Below are positions 1,640-10,686 of a DNA stretch of 24,661 bases, piece after piece; positions within the stretch are counted from its first letter, which is position 1, and each line of letters begins with the position of its first letter. The notes beneath the pieces are model-generated. The model ran no database searches. It was not told where the DNA came from and saw nothing but the letters and a program-made list of their open reading frames with translations. The position numbers were made by a program, and so were the translations under genes. The stretch lies in NCBI GenBank assembly GCA_042216015.1, contig JBDGUI010000037.1:1-24661 (forward strand). The letters run 5' to 3'. The stretch is from Halodesulfurarchaeum sp. Lineage in GTDB: Archaea; Halobacteriota; Halobacteria; Halobacteriales; Halobacteriaceae.

Positions 1640-1812
1640 CTTGGGACGAGGGGGAATGAACCCTCCTGCCGATTTCACTGTCGGACATTCCCGGAAATGG
1701 GGATTTGGGCGGTTCCCCAGACCAACTGGACGGCCGAAGATCGGGACGGGTTCAGGTCGGCCCAGCACCGCGACCGACAGACCTACCCCCGACCATCCGC
1801 TATCCGCCTCCG

Positions 1813-4761
1813 ATGAGCGAGGAGACTATCGAGGTCCGCGGGGCGGCCGAACACAACCTCAAGGACCTCGACGTGTCCATTCCGCGGGAGACCCTCACCG
1901 TCGTGACGGGGCTCTCCGGGTCGGGGAAGTCCTCGCTGGCCTTCGATACCATCTACGCCGAGGGCCAGCGACGGTACATCGAATCCCTCTCCGCCTACGC
2001 CCGGAACTTCCTCGGGCAGATGGACAAGCCGCAGGTCGAATCGGTCGAGGGGCTCTCGCCGGCGATCTCGATCGACCAGAAAAACGCCGCGAACAACCCC
2101 CGGTCGACGGTCGGGACCGTCACCGAACTCCACGACTACCTCCGTCTGCTCTATGCCCGGGTCGGCACCCCGCACTGTCCGGAGTGTGGCCGCGAGGTCG
2201 GCGAGCAGAGCCCCCAGCAGATGGTCCGCCGGATCTTCGAGTTCCCCGAGGGCACCCGCGCGAAGATCGCCGCGCCGATCGTCCGGGACCAGAAGGGCGC
2301 CTTCGAGGACCTGTTCGAGGAACTGCTTGGCGAGGGATACGCCCGTTGCGAGGTCGACGGAGACCCGTACGACTTGGCAACTGAGACGCCGGATCTGGAC
2401 GAGAACTACGATCACACGATCGACGTGATCGTGGACCGGGTGACCGTCCGCGAGGACGCCCGGTCGCGAATCACGGACTCCGTCGAGACCGCCCTCGAGG
2501 AAGCCGACGGGATTCTCAAGGTCATCCTTCCGGACCCGCCCGAAGCGGTGGACGTTGGATCGACGGCCCGGTCGACCGGCGATCTGGCAGCCGACGACGC
2601 GGACCCATCGGCCGCCGTCGAGTTCTCCGAGGACCTGGCCTGCACGCACTGCGGCATCGACCTCCCGGAGATCGAGACCCGGTCGTTCTCCTTCAATAGC
2701 CCGCATGGTGCCTGTCCGGAGTGTGAAGGGATCGGGGAGACCAAGGAGGTGAGCGAGGACCTGGTCGTGGTCGATCCCGAAAAGCCCCTCCGGTCGGTCT
2801 TCGAGCCCTGGAGTTACAACCGCTCGTACTATCGCAACCTGCTCGACAACGTGGCCGAGCACTTCGGCGTGAGCGTCGATACCCCCTTCGAGGACCTGAG
2901 CGAGGAGGTCCAGGAGGCGTTCCTCTGGGGGACGAGCGAGGAGGTCCACTTCGAGCAGCAGACGAAAAACGGGGTCCGACACAAACAGGAGCAATTCGAG
3001 GGGGTCATCCCGAACCTCGAGCGTCGCTACGTCGAAACGGACTCCGATCGGGTGCGAAACCACATCGAGGACTACATGTCGGTCACCACCTGCCCGGCGT
3101 GTGAGGGCACGCGGCTGAAGGCCGAGAGCCGCGCAGTGCTCGTCGATGACACCTCCATCACCGAGGTGAACCGGATGAGCGTCAAGGACGCCCGGGAACA
3201 CTTCGAGGGGATGGAGGCGTCCCTCTCGGAGCGGGATCGAACGATCGCCGAGGAGATCCTCAAGGAGATCCGCGCCAGGCTCGGGTTCATGGAGGAGGTC
3301 GGCCTCGATTACCTCACCCTCGACCGGGAGGCCTCGACGCTCTCGGGCGGGGAGAGCCAGCGCATTCGGCTGGCGACCCAGATCGGCTCCGGGCTGGTCG
3401 GCGTGCTCTACGTGCTCGATGAACCCTCCATCGGCCTGCATCAGCGGGACAACGACCGCCTGCTCGACACGCTCGAGGAACTGCGGGATCTCGGCAACAC
3501 GCTCATCGTCGTCGAACACGACGAGGAGACGATGTGGCGAGCGGATTCGATCGTCGACCTGGGCCCCGGGCCGGGCCGGCATGGTGGGGAGGTCGTCGCC
3601 CACGGCGACCCGGAGGAGTTGATGGCCGAACCCGATTCGATCACGGGGGAGTACCTCGCGGGGCGAAAGCAGATCCCGGTTCCCGAAACGCGTCGCGAGC
3701 GGGATGGGGTCCTGATGGTCAGGGGTGCCCGCCAGCACAATCTCGAGGACCTCGACGTCGAGATTCCGCTCGGCGTCTTCACCGCCATCACCGGCGTGTC
3801 GGGATCTGGCAAGTCCACCCTCATGCACGACGTGCTCTACAAGGGGCTCGCACGACGGATGAACGACAACACCTCGGTCGACCCCGGCGAGCACGACGCC
3901 ATCGAGGGCACCGAGGCGATCGAGTCGGTGCGGCTGATCGACCAGTCGCCCATCGGTCGAACCCCGCGATCCAATCCCGCGACGTACACCGGCGTTTTCG
4001 ACTACGTGCGCGAGCGGTTTGCGGAAACCAAACTCGCCAAACAGCGGGGCTACGAGAGGGGTCGGTTCTCGTTCAACGTGAAGGGTGGTCGATGCGAGGC
4101 CTGCGGTGGCCAGGGAACGGTCACGATCGAAATGAACTTCCTCTCGGACGTGCAGGTGCCCTGCGAGGAGTGTGGCGGGGATCGCTACAACGACGAGACC
4201 CTCGATGTGACCCTCCGCGGAAAGACCATCGCGGACGTCCTCGACATGACCGTCGAGGAGGCGCTTTCCTTTTTCGAATCCGACTCCCGGATCAGCCGGC
4301 GGCTCAAACTCCTCTCCGATGTCGGCCTCGATTACATGCGTCTGGGCCAGCCCTCGACGACCCTCTCGGGCGGGGAGGCCCAGCGGGTCAAACTCGCGGA
4401 GGAACTCGGCAAGCGGGACTCGGGAGAGACACTCTATCTCCTCGATGAGCCCACGACTGGGCTGCACAAGGCCGACGAGCGAAAGCTGATCGACGTGCTC
4501 CACCGCCTCGCCGATCGGGGTAACTCGGTCGTGGTCATCGAGCACGAACTCGACCTGGTGAAAAACGCCGACCACGTGATCGACCTCGGGCCCGAGGGCG
4601 GCGAGAACGGCGGCGATCTCGTGGCGACTGGCACCCCCGAGGCGATCGCAACGGTCGAGGTCTCCGCGACGGGACAGTATCTCCGGGACAAGCTTCCGGC
4701 CGTCGACCTCGACGGCCCGCGGGCCGGTGAACGGCCGACGAGCCGGGCACGTGGGGATTGA
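1813..4761 (+). CDS. uvrA: Excinuclease ABC subunit A
   Basis: Two ABC ATPase modules ([47 protein letters not shown]), zinc-finger CxxC pairs and an N-terminal [12 protein letters not shown]. Start placed at ATG 1813. Confidence 0.97.
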
Positions 4762-4855
4762 ATCGGTCGGATCGTTCCCGGACCGCTCCGTCTCTTCGAA
4801 TGGACCGTCCCGGATCGATATCCCTCTTCGAATCGATGCCTCCGGATCGGGGCGA

Positions 4856-5533
4856 CTAGTCCTCGTTTCGTTGGCCCTTGGCTCGCTCGGCCGCAGCAAG
4901 GTACTCCTCGAGCAATGCCGGAAACTCCCGGCCACGGAGGTACCGGAGGCCGAATTCCTCGGCCCAGTTGATGATCCCGGCGTCCTCGGTGACGACGCCG
5001 GCCTCGAGTTCGCGGGCCAAAACGAGCAGGTCGAAGTCCTCGCGGGAGTCGAGGATCCCCTGTCTGAGCGTCCGTCGGTACTTGTCCCGAAGTTCGGAGA
5101 TCACCTCGTCGGTGGCGGTCTTGTACTCGTGGTCGCCGAGTTCCTCGGCCTCTGTCTCCTGAGCCTCGCGCACCGCACGCTCGGAGACCCGGAGTCCGCG
5201 ATCCACCCGGTCGGACATCTCTTGGACGAACTCGTAGACCACCTCGGCCGGAATCATGACCTCGTAGTGGGCGGGGTTCTTCCGGATGATCCAGGTGTTG
5301 AGCCGTGAGATGAGTTCGGGGCTCAACGAGCGGTCCTCGAGCATCCTCAGGAGTTCCTCCTGGATCGACGGGGGCATGTAACAGGAGATGCCCAATTCCA
5401 GCTTCGCGTTCGCGATGAGGGTGATGAATCGCTCGAGCGCCGCCTCGAGATCCTCGTCGTCCTGACGGATCTCCCCGGTGAGGAAGGCCGAGGTATCGAC
5501 GACGAATCGCTGTTTGAGAGGTTCCTCCGGCAT
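4856..5533 (-). CDS. Protein-only RNase P, HARP (Aq880 homolog; PIN-like 'RNA ligase partner' MJ0950/UPF0278 family)
   Basis: N-terminal RFVVDTS, then CYMPPSI, a [11 protein letters not shown] spike-helix region, [17 protein letters not shown] and VVTED. The expected catalytic aspartates are all present. ATG at 5533. Confidence 0.88.
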
Positions 5534-5652
5534 GGGTGACACTTCGACAGCCGGGGGTAAAGTTCAACCGGCAATTTCGGCGCCTGCCTGGCCACTGGTG
5601 GGGCCCCTCGGGCCGGCGGACCGCTTTTTGCCTCGCCTCCCGTACCCGGGGT
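5534..5652. promoter_or_regulatory. Divergent promoter region shared by HARP and the RNA ligase
   Basis: 119-bp spacer. Minus-strand GAACTTTACC lies ~25-30 nt before the HARP ATG and plus-strand CTTTTTG ~25-30 nt before the ligase ATG, consistent with leaderless transcripts. Confidence 0.5.
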
Positions 5653-6756
5653 ATGGACGAGGCCGCCCTGTTCGACGTCGATACGGGGGATCTCGAGGCG
5701 ATCCGAGAGGCGATGAACACCGAATCGTATCGGGGACGGACCTACCGGTCGCTGAGCCGTCCGGTCCGGGGAGTCGAGCGGGGAACCGTCCGCATTGCAG
5801 ATACCCTCATCAGGGGCTACCCCAGTACCCCACGGGTCCTGGTGCTCGATCCCGGGGTCCCGACGTTCTTCGACGGGTCGATCGCGATCGAGGAGAAACT
5901 CAACGGCTACAACGTTCGGATCGCCCACGTCGGGGAACCGCTCGCGTTCACGCGCGGGGGCCACGTCTGTCCCTACACGACCCGGGTCGCCCGAGCACAA
6001 CTGAACCTCGAGGGGTTTTTCGCCAGTCATCCAGAACACATGATCAATGCGGAATTCATCGGCCCGGAAAACCCGTACACGGCGGCCGACTACGATGTCG
6101 ACTCGATCGAGCCGCGGGTCTTCGACGTTCGACACCGGGAGACGGGTCGTCCGCTCCCCGTCGAGGAGCGGCGGTCGATGGCCGACCGATTCGGATTCCC
6201 CCAGCCCGAACTGTTCGACGTCGTGGACGTCGAATCGGCCGTCGAGGTGATTCGGGACGTGATCGAGGACCTCGATGCCCGTGGCCGGGAGGGCGTGGTC
6301 ATGCAATCACTCGACGGGCGAGACCTCCTCAAGTACACGACGTCTTCCCAGCACCAGTCCGACCTCGAAATGGCCTTTTCGCTGCCTTTCGACTATGGGC
6401 AGGACTTTCTCTTCCCACGACTGGTCCGAGAGGGATTCCAGGCGGTGGAGTTCGAGGAGGACGAAGCGACGGTGCGCGAGCGCGCCCATCGACTCGGTGA
6501 GGCGATCCTCGAACCGATGGTCGAAACGATCCGAACCGTACAGGCGGGCGAGCCCGTCGGGGAGCGACACACCGTCCGGGGCAGTGAGAGCGCGATCGCC
6601 GAACTCCTGGCCCACTTCGACGAACAGGGACTCCGCGTCGAGATCGAGCGGGACCGTCGACTGGGGGACGAACGGGTGGTGGAACTCGTGAAAATCTCGG
6701 ATGCGACCCGGGACAAGATCGAACACTTTCTCGACGGCGGGACGATCGATCGGTGA
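5653..6756 (+). CDS. ATP-dependent RNA ligase, Pab1020/Rnl3 family
   Basis: IRGYP..PR, motif I EEKLNGYNVR, FTRGGHVCPYTT, motif III NAEFIGPENPY, IIIa VFDV, IV GREGVVMQ, V LKYTT, and a C-terminal region with FDYGQDFLFPRLVREGFQ. Confidence 0.92.
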   Translation: MDEAALFDVDTGDLEAIREAMNTESYRGRTYRSLSRPVRGVERGTVRIADTLIRGYPSTPRVLVLDPGVPTFFDGSIAIEEKLNGYNVRIAHVGEPLAFTRGGHVCPYTTRVARAQLNLEGFFASHPEHMINAEFIGPENPYTAADYDVDSIEPRVFDVRHRETGRPLPVEERRSMADRFGFPQPELFDVVDVESAVEVIRDVIEDLDARGREGVVMQSLDGRDLLKYTTSSQHQSDLEMAFSLPFDYGQDFLFPRLVREGFQAVEFEEDEATVRERAHRLGEAILEPMVETIRTVQAGEPVGERHTVRGSESAIAELLAHFDEQGLRVEIERDRRLGDERVVELVKISDATRDKIEHFLDGGTIDR

Positions 6757-6871
6757 GGTTATTCGTATCAGTCATTCTACTGTTTCGATCGGAAAACGGT
6801 GTTAGTCGCTTCAATTCGGTGTTTATTGATTCGTTGCCATCACCTGTAAATCAGATAGGTCAATTGCCCTT

Positions 6872-6902
6872 AGAAAGTGTTAATATGACATACGTCATAC
6901 GT
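6872..6902 (+). promoter_or_regulatory. Archaeal BRE/TATA promoter with an overlapping palindrome, upstream of the candidate ncRNA
   Basis: AGAAA (6872-6876) then TTAATA (6880-6885), 20-25 nt before the 5' strand of the terminal stem. Perfect inverted repeat TATGAC-ATAC-GTCATA at 6884-6899. Confidence 0.65.
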
Positions 6903-6904
6903 TC

Positions 6905-7349
6905 ACATCCCCCTTGGAACGCCACGGGGGCACACTGGACGCCAACGTCCCGGATCGAAAGATCGAGACGGGGCGAGGTAGAGGCCACAACCAAAACGCC
7001 CGTAACAGGGCGGCAAGGTCACAGGTCTCGAAGGAGAACCGCACCGACCCGCCGTCGGGCCGCCATGGCGGTCGGAACCGAAGGCCAAGTACCGGAGCAC
7101 GCGTAAGCGGGCTTCGCGAATATCGACGGCAACGCCGGTGAAAATCCGGCTCACGCCAGCTCACCGGGCACGGCCGGATCCCGGATGAATCCGCTCGCTT
7201 CGCGAACGGAAATCCCGGTGCCAAACCGGGCAACGCCCGAGCTGGCAAGACCCGGTGAGAATCCGGGTAACGCCGTCGCGGGCCGTAAGGGTCGGGGACA
7301 ACGTCTCCCGTCCGGGCCTCAACCGTGCCGTTCCGTTCTGGGGTGTTTT
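6905..7349 (+). ncRNA. Large structured noncoding RNA of unknown family (~445 nt)
   Basis: Ends pair: ACAUCCC 6905-6911 with GGGGUGU 7340-7346, and GGAACG-C-CACGG 6916-6927 with CCGUG-C-CGUUCC 7323-7334. Nested long-range helices 6981-6986/7315-7320, 7044-7050/7289-7295, 7124-7130/7272-7278, 7155-7162/7239-7246 and 7163-7168/7214-7219. GAAA and GUAA tetraloops, two T-loop hairpins, a promoter upstream and a U-tract downstream. No credible ORF. Confidence 0.78.
7346..7349 (+). terminator. Short U-tract immediately after the closing stem (putative archaeal terminator)
   Basis: TTTT directly at the end of the 3' strand of the terminal helix. Confidence 0.4.
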
Positions 7350-7539
7350 CCAGTTCCCGGAGTGTCGGCTCCACCGAGGGGCGTTTCGCCCAATCCACGG
7401 ATCCGTGTTGTCAATTCTCCCGTGTTCGTCCCGCCCTCTTGACACTTCTCCGGTCACTCATTCCATCTCCAATGTTCGGGTGCCAGCCATGCGTGCCATG
7501 ACTCCAATGCTCAATGGGAACCGGCGGGACATCACGGGC

Positions 7540-7677
7540 ATGGTCGAGCCAGGACGGACCGTCGAGGTCCACTACACCGCCCGGATGGTCGATGGGCCGG
7601 ATGCCGGCGAAATCGTGGACACCACGGACGTGGACACCACGGACAGCACGGACGATCGACAACGAGGGAGGGGTTAG
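7540..7677 (+). pseudogene. Truncated FKBP-type (SlyD-like) peptidyl-prolyl isomerase N-terminal fragment
   Basis: MVEPGRTVEVHYTARMVDGPDAGEIVDTTDVD resembles the FKBP N-terminus (VxVHYTG/A...GEVFDTT). Similarity stops at a tandem duplication and the ORF ends after 45 aa. Confidence 0.7.
7614..7643 (+). repeat. 15-bp tandem duplication CGTGGACACCACGGA x2, followed by a degenerate partial copy
   Basis: Read directly at 7614-7628 and 7629-7643, then CAGCACGGA. Confidence 0.85.
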
Positions 7678-7839: not shown

Positions 7840-8850
7840 ATGACTCCTGCAGCCGACATCGATCTCGGATTCGTGGACCTCGGCTCGACCGGCATCCAGA
7901 CGAGCGAACTCCAGTTCGGCACCTGGCGGTTCGGGAAGGAAACCGAGGAGGGCAACGTCGAAATCGGTGAGGGGCGGGGGAAGAAGCTCCTCGACGCCTA
8001 TGAGGAGGCCGGCGGCCGATACATCGATACCGCCGACGTCTACGGCGGGGGAACGGCCGAGCGCTGGATCGGCGACTGGCTCGCCGACCGTGAACGCGAG
8101 CGCTATACCATCGCCTCGAAGATCTACTGGCAGATCCGGGAGGGGGATCCGAACAGCCGGGGCACCAACCGGAAGAACCTGCGTCATCGCATCGACGCGT
8201 TGCTCGAGCGTCTCGGGACCAACTACATCGACGTCCTCTACATCCATCGCTGGGACGACGCGACCTCGCCCCGCGAGATGATGAAGACGCTGAATGGCCT
8301 GGTGGAGTCGGGCAAGGTGAACTACCTCGGGGCCTCCACGCTTCGCCCCAACGCCTGGAAGGTCGCCCGGGCAAACGATATCGCTCGCGAACGGGGCTGG
8401 GAGCCCTTCACCGTCCTTCAGCCGCGATACAATCTCGTCGACCGGGAGATCGAGGGCGGTTACCTCGAGATGGCTCGCCACGACGACCTCGCCGTCTGCC
8501 CGTGGAGTCCGCTCGGACAGGGCTTTCTCACCGGGAAGTACAGCCGCGAGGAGGGACTCACTGGCGAGTCTCGGGCCGCCGAATCGAGCCGCTTTGCTGA
8601 GTCCTATCTCACCGAGACGAACTTCGACGTCCACGACGAGCTGAGCGCGATCGCCGAGGAGGTCGGGGCGACGCCGGCCCAGACAGCCCTCGCGTGGCTC
8701 ATGCACCGCGACGGAGTGACTGCCCCGATCGTCGGCGCCCGGACGGTCGAACAGCTCGAAGAGAACCTGGGGGCCGCCGCGATCGAGCTCACCCAGGGCC
8801 AGGTCGACCGACTGACCGAGGCCAAGGAGGGGCCTTACGGGAACCTCTGA
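7840..8850 (+). CDS. Aldo/keto reductase
   Basis: LQFGTWRFG, IDTADVYG (catalytic Asp/Tyr), IASK, YIDVLYIHRWD, QPRYNLVDR, PWSPLGQGFLTGKY, PIVGARTVEQLEEN. Confidence 0.95.
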   Translation: MTPAADIDLGFVDLGSTGIQTSELQFGTWRFGKETEEGNVEIGEGRGKKLLDAYEEAGGRYIDTADVYGGGTAERWIGDWLADRERERYTIASKIYWQIREGDPNSRGTNRKNLRHRIDALLERLGTNYIDVLYIHRWDDATSPREMMKTLNGLVESGKVNYLGASTLRPNAWKVARANDIARERGWEPFTVLQPRYNLVDREIEGGYLEMARHDDLAVCPWSPLGQGFLTGKYSREEGLTGESRAAESSRFAESYLTETNFDVHDELSAIAEEVGATPAQTALAWLMHRDGVTAPIVGARTVEQLEENLGAAAIELTQGQVDRLTEAKEGPYGNL

Positions 8851-10686
8851 TCACGAGGAGAGCGTCCGTTCGGTGACGGGGACCCCTTTGCTCGAGAGGT
8901 GATGCATCTGCTGGAGGGCAAAATCGGCCTCCCTGGAGTTCGCCGTGGCGAGGACCACGACCTCGGCGTTCCCCGAGGGACGCATCAGCCGACCCGCCCG
9001 CTGGGTCCCCTGCCGGCGGGACCCGCCCAATCCGGAGGCGATCACCGCGAGTTCGGCGTCCGGGAGGTCGATCCCCTCGTCCCCGACCCGGGAGACGATC
9101 AGGGTCCGGTGCTCGCCCCGTCTGAACCCCTGGAACAGCCTCGCCCGTTCGGCGTGGGGGGTTTCGCCACTCACGAAGGGCACGTCGAGTTCCCTGGCCA
9201 ATTCTTCGCCCTGGTCGAGGTACTCGACGAAGAGGAGGGTCTTTGCGTCTGGCCGTTCGGCGAGCACGTCTTTTACCGCCTCGATCTTGGCCGGGTTCGT
9301 CGCCGCCAGTTGTCGTTTCTGGTGGTGGCTGGATTCGGCGTATTGCTCGGTTAGCCCCTCGTCTTCCCACGGGACGTACCTGATCTCGACGGCGGGTTGC
9401 TCGACGAACCCGGCGTCGAAGAGCGCGTCCCAGTCGGTCCCGATCGGGGGTCCGATCAGGGTGTAGATGTCACGCTCGCGGTCGTCCTCGCGGAGCGGCG
9501 ACGCGGTCAATCCCAGCCGGTGTTTGCCTTGCAGGTTCGCGGTCGTGCGGGTGACAGGTGAGGGCACTCGATGGGCCTCGTCGTAGACGATGAGTCCCCA
9601 GCGACGGCTGTCGAAGAGCCCCCGGTGTCGCTCCATACTGGCGATCCGGTAGGTGGCGATGGTGACCGGCCGGATCTCCTTCTCGCCGCCGTGGAACTCG
9701 CCGATATGCTCGGACGTGAGGTCGGTGTGCCGGAGGAGTTCCTCACGCCACTGGCCGGCCAGCTCGCGGGTCGGAACCAGCACGAGTGTTTCGGATTCGA
9801 GTGCGGCCACGATCCCGATCGCGGCGACGGTCTTCCCGCTCCCCGCCGGGCCGACCAGGACCCCCGATCCCGCCTCGAGGAAGCGCTCGAGCCAGTCGGC
9901 CTGGTAGTCCCGCAACTCGACGTAGAGCGAGATGTCGAGGTGATCGCCCTCTGCCAGCTCTCGCTCGTCCAGGACGGGATACCCGGCGTCATAGAGGATG
10001 CGCTTGATTTCGGCCTCGCGCCCCTCGACCACCCAGCTCGTGTCGTCGTCGATCGGACCGTGGAGATGCTCGTCGTCGAGTTCCTCGCGGGCGATGTTGC
10101 CCATCAACGAGTCGCTCGCCGCCTCGAGGACCGTGTACCCCTCTTCGTGGGTCCGAAGCGCGAACTGCCGGGCGCGTCGCCACTGGGATTCGATCCACTC
10201 CTCCAGCTTCGGGTTCTCCTCACCGAGCACGTCCCGAACCGTGCCACGAAGGGACTCGAAGGTATCGTGGGGCGCCGCCCAGACGTCCTCGCGGCGGATC
10301 TCGTATCGATAGCCAGCCCGTCCGTTCGTTTCGGCGAGTCGAGCGAACTGGGAGACCTGGGCCCGCGTGAACTGCTTGGGCCGGTCGACGATCACCTCGT
10401 GACTGTCGGGGAACGGGACGACTCGCTCCCGATGGGTCGACTTCTTCCACTGCTCGGCGAAGAACACGACCGGGTCGGTCTCGACGCCGAGCCGAGCCAC
10501 CTGGTCGGCCTCGACCAGCGACTCGAGCATGTCGTCGGCCGCGGACTGCGTACAGTCGAGGGCGTCGGCGATGTCGCTCGCGGTGACGACCGGCCGCTCG
10601 ACGGCCTCGATCGCGTCGCGGAACGCCTCGATGGGCGACTCGTACTCGGGAGGCGGCTGATCGGGGGCGGAATCGGACCGGGTCAC
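8851..10686 (-). CDS. XPB/Rad25-like SF2 (DEAH) helicase with N-terminal HTH-like extension
   Basis: Q motif LRDYQ, Walker A GPAGSGKT, DEAH box, motif III LTAS, VGDEGIDLPD and motif VI QRAGR. GTG start. Confidence 0.88.
   Translation of the reverse strand: MTRSDSAPDQPPPEYESPIEAFRDAIEAVERPVVTASDIADALDCTQSAADDMLESLVEADQVARLGVETDPVVFFAEQWKKSTHRERVVPFPDSHEVIVDRPKQFTRAQVSQFARLAETNGRAGYRYEIRREDVWAAPHDTFESLRGTVRDVLGEENPKLEEWIESQWRRARQFALRTHEEGYTVLEAASDSLMGNIAREELDDEHLHGPIDDDTSWVVEGREAEIKRILYDAGYPVLDERELAEGDHLDISLYVELRDYQADWLERFLEAGSGVLVGPAGSGKTVAAIGIVAALESETLVLVPTRELAGQWREELLRHTDLTSEHIGEFHGGEKEIRPVTIATYRIASMERHRGLFDSRRWGLIVYDEAHRVPSPVTRTTANLQGKHRLGLTASPLREDDRERDIYTLIGPPIGTDWDALFDAGFVEQPAVEIRYVPWEDEGLTEQYAESSHHQKRQLAATNPAKIEAVKDVLAERPDAKTLLFVEYLDQGEELARELDVPFVSGETPHAERARLFQGFRRGEHRTLIVSRVGDEGIDLPDAELAVIASGLGGSRRQGTQRAGRLMRPSGNAEVVVLATANSREADFALQQMHHLSSKGVPVTERTLSS

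Follow-up and report, generated by a model that had tools for sequence, protein, structure and literature searches.

A candidate large structured non-coding RNA of Halobacteria and its recurrence beside genes for a protein-only RNase P and an RNA ligase

What is encoded between the gene for an Rnl3-type RNA ligase and the next gene in a genome fragment of Halodesulfurarchaeum sp.? The window, meaning the whole analysed stretch of 24,661 nucleotides (nt) from contig JBDGUI010000037.1 of assembly GCA_042216015.1, has the base composition of high-GC haloarchaeal DNA. Positions 6905–7349 of its + strand have the properties expected of a stand-alone gene that specifies a highly structured non-coding RNA (ncRNA) of about 440 nt, with a TATA box of its own and a T-run at its end. 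A first-pass annotation, made from the letters alone, had placed a large archaeal ncRNA of an unrecognised class here. That proposal is upheld by the folding energy, by strong covariation and by the lack of any matching Rfam 15 family. To our knowledge, large structured RNAs of unknown function are rare and come almost exclusively from bacteria, which makes an archaeal class backed by strong covariation noteworthy in its own right.

The + strand of 6905–7349 folds with a minimum free energy of −224.5 kcal/mol, against a mean of −189.8 kcal/mol for dinucleotide shuffles (z = −5.39); none of 100 shuffles folds as well. The − strand of the same interval has a z-score of −2.90. Fifteen representative homologues give + strand z-scores of −2.7 to −7.75 against their shuffles, and in all 15 the + strand folds better than the − strand. 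The orientation originally assigned is therefore supported in the window and in its relatives alike.

Homologues were obtained from two sources. BLASTN in distant mode against plasmids returned partial matches on haloarchaeal megaplasmids, namely two plasmids of Natrinema sp. SYSU A 869, plasmids of three Halorussus species and pHBOR03 of Halogeometricum borinquense. The most conserved block in the alignment of these plasmid homologues, a GNRA-capped hairpin, supplied a degenerate pattern for scanning genomes. The scan found 37 loci, all in Halobacteria, a count that is a lower bound given the exact pattern and is biased towards members keeping the GNRA hairpin. The genera represented are Halodesulfurarchaeum, Natrinema, Haloterrigena, Halorussus, Halorubellus, Halogeometricum, Salinigranum, Natronomonas, Halovenus, Haloarchaeobius, Halegenticoccus and Natronolimnohabitans, along with metagenome-assembled genomes (MAGs). 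Plasmids and genomes together yield 43 homologues, and the family appears confined to Halobacteria as far as sampled. Closest to the window RNA are loci L008 (91%), L035 (90.5%), L029 (86%) and L013 (84%), with L008 and L029 labelled Halodesulfurarchaeum.

Every member is built from two shared blocks, about 215 nt at the 5′ end and about 90 nt at the 3′ end, separated by an insert of 30–241 nt. The conserved core comprises about 265 nt and contains many invariant unpaired bases. The core was modelled as 16 helices with 87 pairs, which were counted on a MAFFT alignment of 44 sequences that was not fitted to any structure. Standard pairs occupy 85.4% of the cells against 33–46% with the 3′ partners slid by one to three columns, and the covariation score is 0.396 against 0.06–0.12 in the slid controls, contrasts that are somewhat inflated because the model derives from the same sequences. 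None of 500 shuffles reaches the observed score. Compensatory change is widespread among the homologues: 69 of the 87 pairs change on both sides, and these double changes are numerous even when the bias of model derivation is allowed for. A closing rod (H1–H3) pairs the 5′ and 3′ ends and opens to a multiway junction with the hairpin domains H4 and H5. Beyond these, H6 and H7 lead to a three-way junction with hairpin H8, then to H9 and to a junction of H10 with a peripheral domain. The core elements are as follows.

6905–6941 (+): 5′ strands of the closing rod, in order H1, H1b, H2, H2b, a conserved bulge ACA (6932–6934) and H3.
6905–6911/7340–7346 (+): H1, ACAUCCC/GGGGUGU, 53% paired and out of register in the 44-sequence alignment.
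6916–6921/7329–7334 (+): H1b, GGAACG/CGUUCC, 78% paired, double changes in every pair.
6923–6927/7323–7327 (+): H2, CACGG/CCGUG, 86% paired, double changes in every pair.
6928–6931/7316–7319 (+): H2b, 82% paired.
6935–6941/7309–7315 (+): H3, CUGGACG/CGUCCGG, 97% paired.
6946–6975 (+): hairpin domain H4, CGUCCC/GGGGCG with an apical GAUC-GAAA-GAUC; H4 is 82.5% paired, with five of six pairs doubly changed.
6981–7029 (+): hairpin domain H5, with GAGGCC/GGUCUC (78.6% paired), ACC/GGU (94.7%) and CGCCC-GUAACA-GGGCG (90.9%); its conserved linkers are ACAACCAAA and CAAGGUCA.
7033–7037/7304–7308 (+): H6, GGAGA/UCUCC, 97.2% paired.
7044–7050/7289–7295 (+): H7, CCGACCC/GGGUCGG, 94.5% paired, five of seven pairs doubly changed; the 5′-strand segment 7033–7050 of H6 and H7 carries the near-invariant GAAGGAGAACCG.
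7055–7076 (+): hairpin H8, 90.6% paired, nine of nine pairs doubly changed, with a self-complementary apical CAUG at 7064–7067.
7083–7086/7281–7284 (+): H9, GGCC/GGCC, 93.5% paired, its 5′ strand followed by the linker AAGUA.
7093–7116 (+): GNRA-capped hairpin H10 with loop GUAA at 7103–7106, 96.5% paired and followed by GAA; the H9/H10 block (7083–7120) supplied the scan pattern, so its conservation among the matches is partly by construction.
7281–7349 (+): 3′ strands, in order H9, H7, the near-invariant GGACAACG, H6, H3, H2b, a bulge CAA, H2, H1b, H1 and the T-run.

Thirteen pairings had been drawn by eye in the first-pass annotation. Eight of them hold and five give way to better-supported partners. 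The stem GGAACG-C-CACGG/CCGUG-C-CGUUCC corresponds to H1b and H2, and CCGACCC/GGGUCGG to H7; the hairpins CGCCC-GUAACA-GGGCG and CGGAGC..GUAA..GCUUCG (the latter H10) likewise stand, as do the peripheral helices CGACGGC/GCCGUCG and GCCAGCUC/GAGCUGGC. Two survive weakly. These are the outermost stem H1 and the apical GAUC hairpin of H4, which is of variable length, poorly aligned and about 50% paired across the 44 sequences. The weakness of H1 concerns its register. Most homologues have a closing duplex at this place: the 26 nt before H2 pair with the 34 nt after it with a mean z of −2.1, and 25 of 44 loci fall below −2. Examples are CCCCACUGCGGA with UUCGCGGUGGG, and GCGAGCCGGGAGC with GCUCCCGGC...CGC. 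The 5′ and 3′ ends thus appear to be paired family-wide by differing, covarying sequences. Among the five replaced pairings, the long-range GAGGCC/GGCCUC is 64.8% paired against 63.4% in shuffles (88 of 500 shuffles equal it), whereas the local GGUCUC partner in H5 is better paired. The local hairpins GGACG/CGUCC (74%) and UCUC/GAGA (70%) use bases that pair long-range at 97% in H3 and H6. ACCGGG/CCCGGU, at 82.7% against 79.2% shuffled, conflicts with the hairpin model of the peripheral domain given below. So does GGGC-AAC-GCCC, for which no separate pair count was made.

The periphery (7121–7280) is variable, and in the window RNA it is modelled as two stacked four-way junctions with tRNA T-arm-like hairpins.

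7121–7280 (+): variable peripheral domain.
7124–7130/7272–7278 (+): Hv1, CGACGGC/GCCGUCG, 84% paired in nine long-form sequences.
7134–7150 (+): T-arm 1.
7155–7162/7239–7246 (+): Hv2, GCCAGCUC/GAGCUGGC, 98.6% paired in the same nine sequences.
7166–7169/7235–7238 (+): Hv3, GGGC/GCCC.
7172–7186 (+): degenerate T-arm.
7191–7209 (+): UUCG hairpin.
7214–7230 (+): T-arm 3.
7251–7267 (+): T-arm 4.

For the nine long-form sequences RNAalifold proposes 128 pairs, of which 44 show compensatory changes. On the same nine sequences the peripheral model of 42 pairs is 95.1% paired against 23–50% when slid; 17 of the 42 pairs are doubly changed, and none of 500 shuffles does as well. In the T-loop motif, U1 and A5 form a reverse-Hoogsteen pair, the loop is closed by G-C, and another base intercalates between positions 4 and 5. 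A search for hairpins with a 7-nt loop, selected for U1 and A5, found 72 in 26 of the 44 sequences; 200 shuffles of those inserts gave 1.3 ± 1.1, with a maximum of 5. The loop consensus is U-G-N-R-A-N-Y. Position 2 is G in 66 of the 72 and position 4 a purine in 68; the closing pair is G-C. The stems measure 5 bp in 48 cases and 6 bp in 23, and they covary. In one relative the hairpin reads GGUUCGAAUCC. The repeated hairpins carry the T-loop signature at the sequence level and have the dimensions of a tRNA T-arm. T-loop modules occur in tRNA, the RNase P S-domain, stem I of the T-box and L4 of the cobalamin riboswitch. Shared with these are U1, A5, a preferred G2, a purine at position 4, the G-C closure and the 5-bp stem of the tRNA T-arm; here, in contrast, they form one to five repeats at four-way junctions with A-rich linkers and are dispensable. 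Of the four T-arms in the window RNA, three are intact and one is degenerate. Larger peripheral domains consist of four-way junctions that each carry such hairpins, and long forms have two to five per molecule. The remaining 18 of 44 members have a plain hairpin and zero T-arm modules, which indicates that the modules are lineage-specific elaborations and not the core function.

Is the RNA an independent gene? A purine-rich element resembling the B-recognition element (BRE) precedes a TATA-like box, as set out here.

6872–6886 (+): promoter, with BRE-like AGAAAGTG at 6872–6879 followed by TATA-like TTAATAT at 6880–6886.

In 32 of 44 loci a TATA-like box, scored as at least five of seven matches to TTTAATA, precedes helix H2 by 39–49 nt. 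The spacing from TATA box to start in haloarchaeal promoters is 25–30 nt. Transcription is predicted to start at about 6905–6910, at or just before the first paired base. At the other end the T-run occupies 7346–7349, and a run of at least four T occurs within 60 nt after the 3′ strand of H2 in 25 of 44 loci. The early reading of a promoter of its own is upheld by the recurrence of the TATA-like box. In BLASTN against the syntenic locus L035, the RNA aligns over exactly 6905–7349 (query 1–445) at 90.8% identity. The neighbouring genes are less similar (HARP, described below, 84.6%, ligase 77.2%, reductase 85.5%, helicase 82.3%), and the flanking spacers are unaligned or align over 41 bases. 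No other segment of the syntenic region is as well conserved in this comparison, and the boundaries first drawn are correct, since the alignment stops exactly at 6905 and 7349.

A more conventional account would deny an independent RNA gene and invoke a 3′ untranslated region (UTR) of the ligase gene, a 5′ leader of the next gene, a missed known RNA, coding sequence or chance structure. The RNA does lie on the ligase strand and begins 148 nt past the ligase stop, and long open reading frames (ORFs) run across it on either strand, as is common in high-GC DNA. These ORFs have no Pfam match, the insert varies from 30 to 241 nt, most homologues have no upstream ligase, and their downstream genes are unrelated. 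Different lineages have different flanking genes, and in many cases the downstream gene runs towards the RNA, which speaks strongly against a leader or a 3′ UTR element. With the promoter box conserved, the covariation strong and Rfam silent, this account is hardly tenable.

Two observations concern the flanks. The spacer between the ligase stop and the promoter (6757–6879) is relatively AT-rich, is unconserved in L035, L029 and L013, and has a chance-level Rfam match to mir-7927 (E = 0.048). Downstream, the ORF at 7489–7674 (+, 62 codons) had been called an FKBP remnant. Pfam at E ≤ 1 returned a weak DUF7927 match (0.033) and no FKBP, so that label is unverified; the longer ORF 7255–7677 in the same frame has no Pfam family.

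Does the RNA belong to a known class? At the gathering score no Rfam 15 family occurs anywhere in the window, and 15 homologous loci contain tRNAs and nothing else. At E ≤ 10 the interval 6700–7550 gives noise: mir-7927, CRISPR-DR28, sR58, Pseudomon-groES and FMN fragments. Neither Rfam 15 nor the searchable literature contains the family, and in that sense it is new. Literature searches found neither the phrase ‘RNA ligase partner protein’ nor a paper on such an RNA, with terms that were partly ill-suited and a coverage that excluded subscription journals and motif databases other than Rfam. The first-pass annotation had seen no signature of RNase P RNA, signal recognition particle (SRP) RNA, C/D box RNA, tRNA or group II intron, and the dedicated searches agree. 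For archaeal RNase P RNA, RNaseP_arch is unmatched at the gathering score in the window and the 15 loci, and at E ≤ 10 in 6700–7550, as is every other RNase P model. Such RNAs of type A resemble the present one in length (300–450 nt), in a terminal stem that pairs the ends and in T-loop motifs, and here the RNA adjoins a HARP gene; they differ in P4 and CR-I to CR-V, none of which is apparent here on reading the sequence. The Archaea_SRP model is likewise unmatched, and GAAGGAGAAC resembles SRP helix 8 by eye only. ARAGORN finds no tRNA gene in the window, and the Rfam tRNA model is unmatched in the RNA. Cobalamin riboswitch models are not listed at E ≤ 10; the resemblance is confined to a T-loop hairpin like GGUGAAAAUCC. 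For C/D box sRNAs, eight RTGATGA matches occur in the window, none within 6905–7349, and the sR58 match (E = 1.8) lies outside, on the − strand at 7450–7480. C/D box sRNAs also have a terminal stem joining their ends; Rnl3 circularises these sRNAs in Thermococcales, and HARP is proposed to trim them (PMC12153264). The present RNA is about eight times longer, has no C box and differs wholly in architecture.

The Rfam 15 models of OLE, ROOL, GOLLD, HEARO, raiA and group I and II introns are also unmatched. A likeness of kind exists with OLE, ROOL, GOLLD, raiA and HEARO: several hundred nt, multiple domains, covarying helices, conserved junction bases and stand-alone genes. What sets the present family apart is its archaeal host range (Halobacteria), its modular T-arm-like periphery and its other gene neighbours. 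Possible homo-oligomerisation through loop–loop contact would be a further likeness to the OLE/ROOL/GOLLD type, and here it is suggested by hairpin H8. OLE, ROOL and GOLLD are described as assembling into homo-oligomers (bioRxiv 10.1101/2024.12.08.627333). The apical tetranucleotide of H8 is CAUG in 25 sequences, CGCG in six, CUAG in five and CCGG in three, a palindrome in 39 of 44, and the variants are scattered across different clades. This fits a kissing homodimer without proving it. At the DNA level, the loop with its closing pairs (window 7062–7069) reads CCATGG, CCTAGG, CCGCGG or CCCGGG, all classic restriction sites. The palindromes are read here as RNA self-complementarity; a cause at the DNA level could also account for them.

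With what does the RNA act? Its recurrent neighbours point to two RNA-processing enzymes. The − strand gene at 4856–5542 matches Pfam PIN_5 (7.8e-77) and NCBIfam TIGR03875 (1.4e-75), and its protein matches seven Protein Data Bank (PDB) sequences entitled ‘RNA-free ribonuclease P’, best 7e8j_A (3.1e-37). It thus encodes HARP. The first-pass annotation had missed this identity, the T-loop character of the repeated hairpins and the right pairing of certain helices. The adjoining ligase carries Pfam RNA_ligase and Lig_C and matches TIGR01209 and the PDB entries 5d1o_A (MthRnl, 2.4e-79) and 2vug_A (PAB1020, 6.6e-44). The genes of the region are as follows.

1705–4761 (+): UvrA, flanking gene of the region.
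4856–5542 (−): HARP, protein-only RNase P (PIN_5, ‘RNA ligase partner protein’), genomic partner outside the RNA.
5536–6756 (+): Rnl3-type ATP-dependent RNA ligase (Pab1020/MthRnl family), genomic partner.
6905–7349 (+): the candidate ncRNA gene.
7840–8850 (+): aldo-keto reductase, downstream of the RNA.
8851–10686 (−): XPB-like helicase, downstream of the RNA.

HARP and ligase genes are divergent in the window, and their longest ORFs share seven bases at their starts; a divergent, bidirectional order of HARP and Rnl3 genes is described as typical (PMC12153264).

A HARP gene lies within 2 kb of the RNA in ten of 44 loci, that is, in the window and in nine of the 43 homologue loci by tblastn, with Pfam confirmation. 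Some loci in this count end early at contig ends; L008 stops about 150 bases before the RNA and 332 before the pattern match. Three gene orders occur. HARP(−)/ligase(+)/RNA(+) is found in the window, L013, L029 and L035. HARP(−)/RNA(+) without ligase is found in four Halorussus species (L003, L004, L006, L031) and in Halogeometricum pallidum (L033). RNA(+)/HARP(−)/ligase(+) is found in L039 (Natrialbaceae). By our own gene-density estimate, about 0.1 adjacencies would arise by chance if the gene had one or two copies per genome of about 4 Mb. HARP is the sole recurrent RNA-related neighbour in a Pfam survey of the 71 nearest ORFs; amine-oxidase-type genes, DUF6149 and HalOD1 also recur, within related lineages. 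The association of the RNA with HARP, with or without Rnl3, is non-random.

The RNA might nonetheless be a genuine new structured ncRNA that has nothing to do with HARP or Rnl3, with a synteny that is inherited or accidental, and serve as a ribonucleoprotein (RNP) scaffold, a self-assembling RNA or a ribozyme. Diverse other neighbours in 34 of 44 loci would follow naturally, as would the four of seven plasmid HARP genes that have no RNA nearby, and the conserved unpaired junction bases together with the palindromic loop suit an autonomous fold of the OLE/ROOL/GOLLD kind. Ten adjacencies in three gene orders and four lineages, and the standing of HARP as sole RNA-related neighbour, are harder to reconcile with it. 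This explanation is possible but on the whole doubtful.

The best overall explanation, to which we give a little less than an even chance, is that the RNA is a dedicated partner of the HARP/Rnl3 pair and most likely its substrate. Rnl3 is present in 89% of 751 HARP-positive genomes, and in 163 of 501 archaeal cases its gene is co-localised with that of HARP (PMC12153264, Seshadri and Gopalan). The same survey treats the role of HARP, and the substrates of HARP and Rnl3, beside an RNA-based RNase P as an open question; it reports that HARP is active without RNA and does not mention an associated RNA gene (PMC12153264). The proposal made there is that HARP trims C/D box RNAs, which Rnl3 then circularises (PMC12153264). 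HARP also cuts 3′ trailers (PMC12217051), and circular isoforms of SRP RNA and RNase P RNA are described in archaea (PMC12558985). For the present RNA, read as a partner of HARP and Rnl3, the steps may be envisaged as follows. (i) HARP would trim the paired RNA termini to leave 5′-phosphate and 3′-OH ends. (ii) The closing stem would hold the trimmed ends together. (iii) Rnl3 could then seal them, yielding a circular, exonuclease-resistant RNA. (iv) Two copies might kiss through the self-complementary H8 loop and form a homodimer. The RNA is probably end-processed, perhaps circularised, and probably dimeric via the palindromic loop. Its conserved core might bind a protein or a ligand, or might be catalytic. 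The fullest version, in which it is the missing HARP–Rnl3 partner, HARP-processed, Rnl3-circularised and dimeric as RNA or RNP, and possibly catalytic in view of its invariant junction core, is rather unlikely when taken whole.

Several points weigh against this explanation. In 34 of 44 RNA loci there is no HARP in the DNA examined, and the ten adjacent cases represent about four lineages and hence few independent events. The RNA lies within 4 kb of three of seven HARP genes on haloarchaeal plasmids, and all three are in Halorussus. Beside the other four, a search for a divergent copy with nhmmer --max at E ≤ 10 gave noise, and inspection of the ligase-adjacent gaps in L047 and L048 by eye found no core motifs. 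In H. borinquense the HARP–ligase pair is on pHBOR01 and the RNA on pHBOR03. Transcription is predicted to begin right at the first paired base of the closing stem, which may leave HARP little or no 5′ leader. Although a closing stem and T-arm-like hairpins are present, a 12-bp acceptor/T stack reaching the 5′ end, as in HARP substrates, is not evident. The HARP-adjacent short forms (Halorussus, L033, L039) carry zero T-arm modules, and T-arms as a general handle for HARP are rejected on that account. HARP knockouts in Haloferax and Methanosarcina are free of phenotype, and Rnl3 knockouts in model species have no growth phenotype (PMC12153264). The palindromic loop could have another cause, the covariation contrast is inflated to the extent already stated, and the transcript, its ends and its circularity are all predictions from sequence.

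The T-arms bear on two further explanations. In the first, the RNA would regulate HARP as a decoy, either mimicking the tRNA elbow or acting as an antitoxin-like inhibitor, by analogy with type III toxin–antitoxin systems or sponge RNAs. HARP is a VapC-like PIN nuclease for which a toxin role is discussed (PMC12153264). The HARP dodecamer binds five pre-tRNAs, reads the backbone of the T-psi-C loop and measures the distance to the cleavage site (PMC12217051), so that several T-psi-C loops are engaged simultaneously, and the two to five look-alikes of the long forms would offer it just such targets. The short forms beside HARP lack them, the RNA is often far from any HARP gene, and deletion of HARP or ligase is harmless in model species (PMC12153264). 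The gene pattern is also unlike a ToxI system: no tandem repeat occurs in 6700–7500, and the RNA, which has a promoter of its own, either diverges from HARP or has the ligase between itself and HARP, and in many cases the two are unlinked. A decoy role is improbable.

The second explanation makes the RNA a tRNA-binding scaffold, whose T-loops would dock tRNA elbows and hand pre-tRNAs or broken tRNAs to HARP and Rnl3. Interdigitated T-loops in the RNase P S-domain and T-box stem I bind tRNA elbows. The abundance of T-loop motifs here, paired across junctions, and the action of both partner enzymes on tRNA-like substrates speak for such a role; the 18 of 44 members without a T-arm module, and the lack of similarity to the RNase P RNA or T-box models of Rfam, speak against it. 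It is very improbable. A related comparison can be drawn with YrlA/YrlB, bacterial Y-RNA-like molecules with tRNA-like features that are encoded in rsr–rtcB RNA-repair operons. These too are structured ncRNAs with T-arm features whose genes lie beside those of an RNA ligase and an RNA-processing protein. The proteins are Ro and RtcB there and HARP and Rnl3 here, with no similarity of sequence or model. The present RNA is much larger, with a conserved non-tRNA core and its own promoter, and is often unlinked from the enzymes.

The recurrence beside HARP and Rnl3 bears on why archaea with an RNA-based RNase P keep a weak protein-only enzyme and a circularising ligase (PMC12153264). Under the partner explanation the RNA is a concrete candidate target of both, testable in culturable carriers; sequenced carriers include Halogeometricum borinquense DSM 11551 and strains of Natrinema, Halorussus and Halorubellus. 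If that explanation is true, it would provide the first physiological role for protein-only RNase P in archaea that also have the RNA-based enzyme, and the family would be the first class of large ‘ornate’ RNAs that is peculiar to Archaea. Its arrays of modular T-arms and its palindromic loop are also attractive targets for structural studies.

Other features recur around the RNA. Small HalOD1 genes lie downstream of the RNA or HARP in L001 (4784–5089), L004 (4391–4696), L006 (4245–4550) and L031 (6669–6971). A further HalOD1 gene is found in L045 (4914–5716) of Salinigranum marinum, where the RNA is absent; the megaplasmid hosts of HalOD1 are Natrinema, Halorussus and Salinigranum marinum. 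In loci from three genera a tRNA-Leu(CAA) gene precedes the RNA by 0.7–1.6 kb in the same orientation (L015 4034–4118, L024 3366–3449, L033 3251–3334), and in L033 HARP sits between the tRNA and the RNA. In L019, L021, L032, L036 and L037, which belong to Halorubellus, Natronomonas and Natrialbaceae, the RNA is followed by a convergent gene of flavin amine-oxidase type (phytoene-desaturase-like). DUF6149 precedes the RNA in the three Halorubellus loci.

Copy number also varies. No second copy was found inside the window, and BLASTN in distant mode against a phage collection gave zero matches to the RNA. Two copies are present in each of at least three genomes (L001/L002, L012/L017 and L027/L034). 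L001 and L002 lie on two megaplasmids of Natrinema sp. SYSU A 869 and are 88.7% identical, with the L002 copy flanked by IS630 and IS6 transposase genes; the other two pairs come from MAGs. In L024, a Salinigranum MAG, partial copies of the 5′ core at 4245–4418 and 4585–4661 (nhmmer E = 4e-23 and 9.5e-05) precede the full copy at about 4811–5140, as tandem duplications or products of decay.

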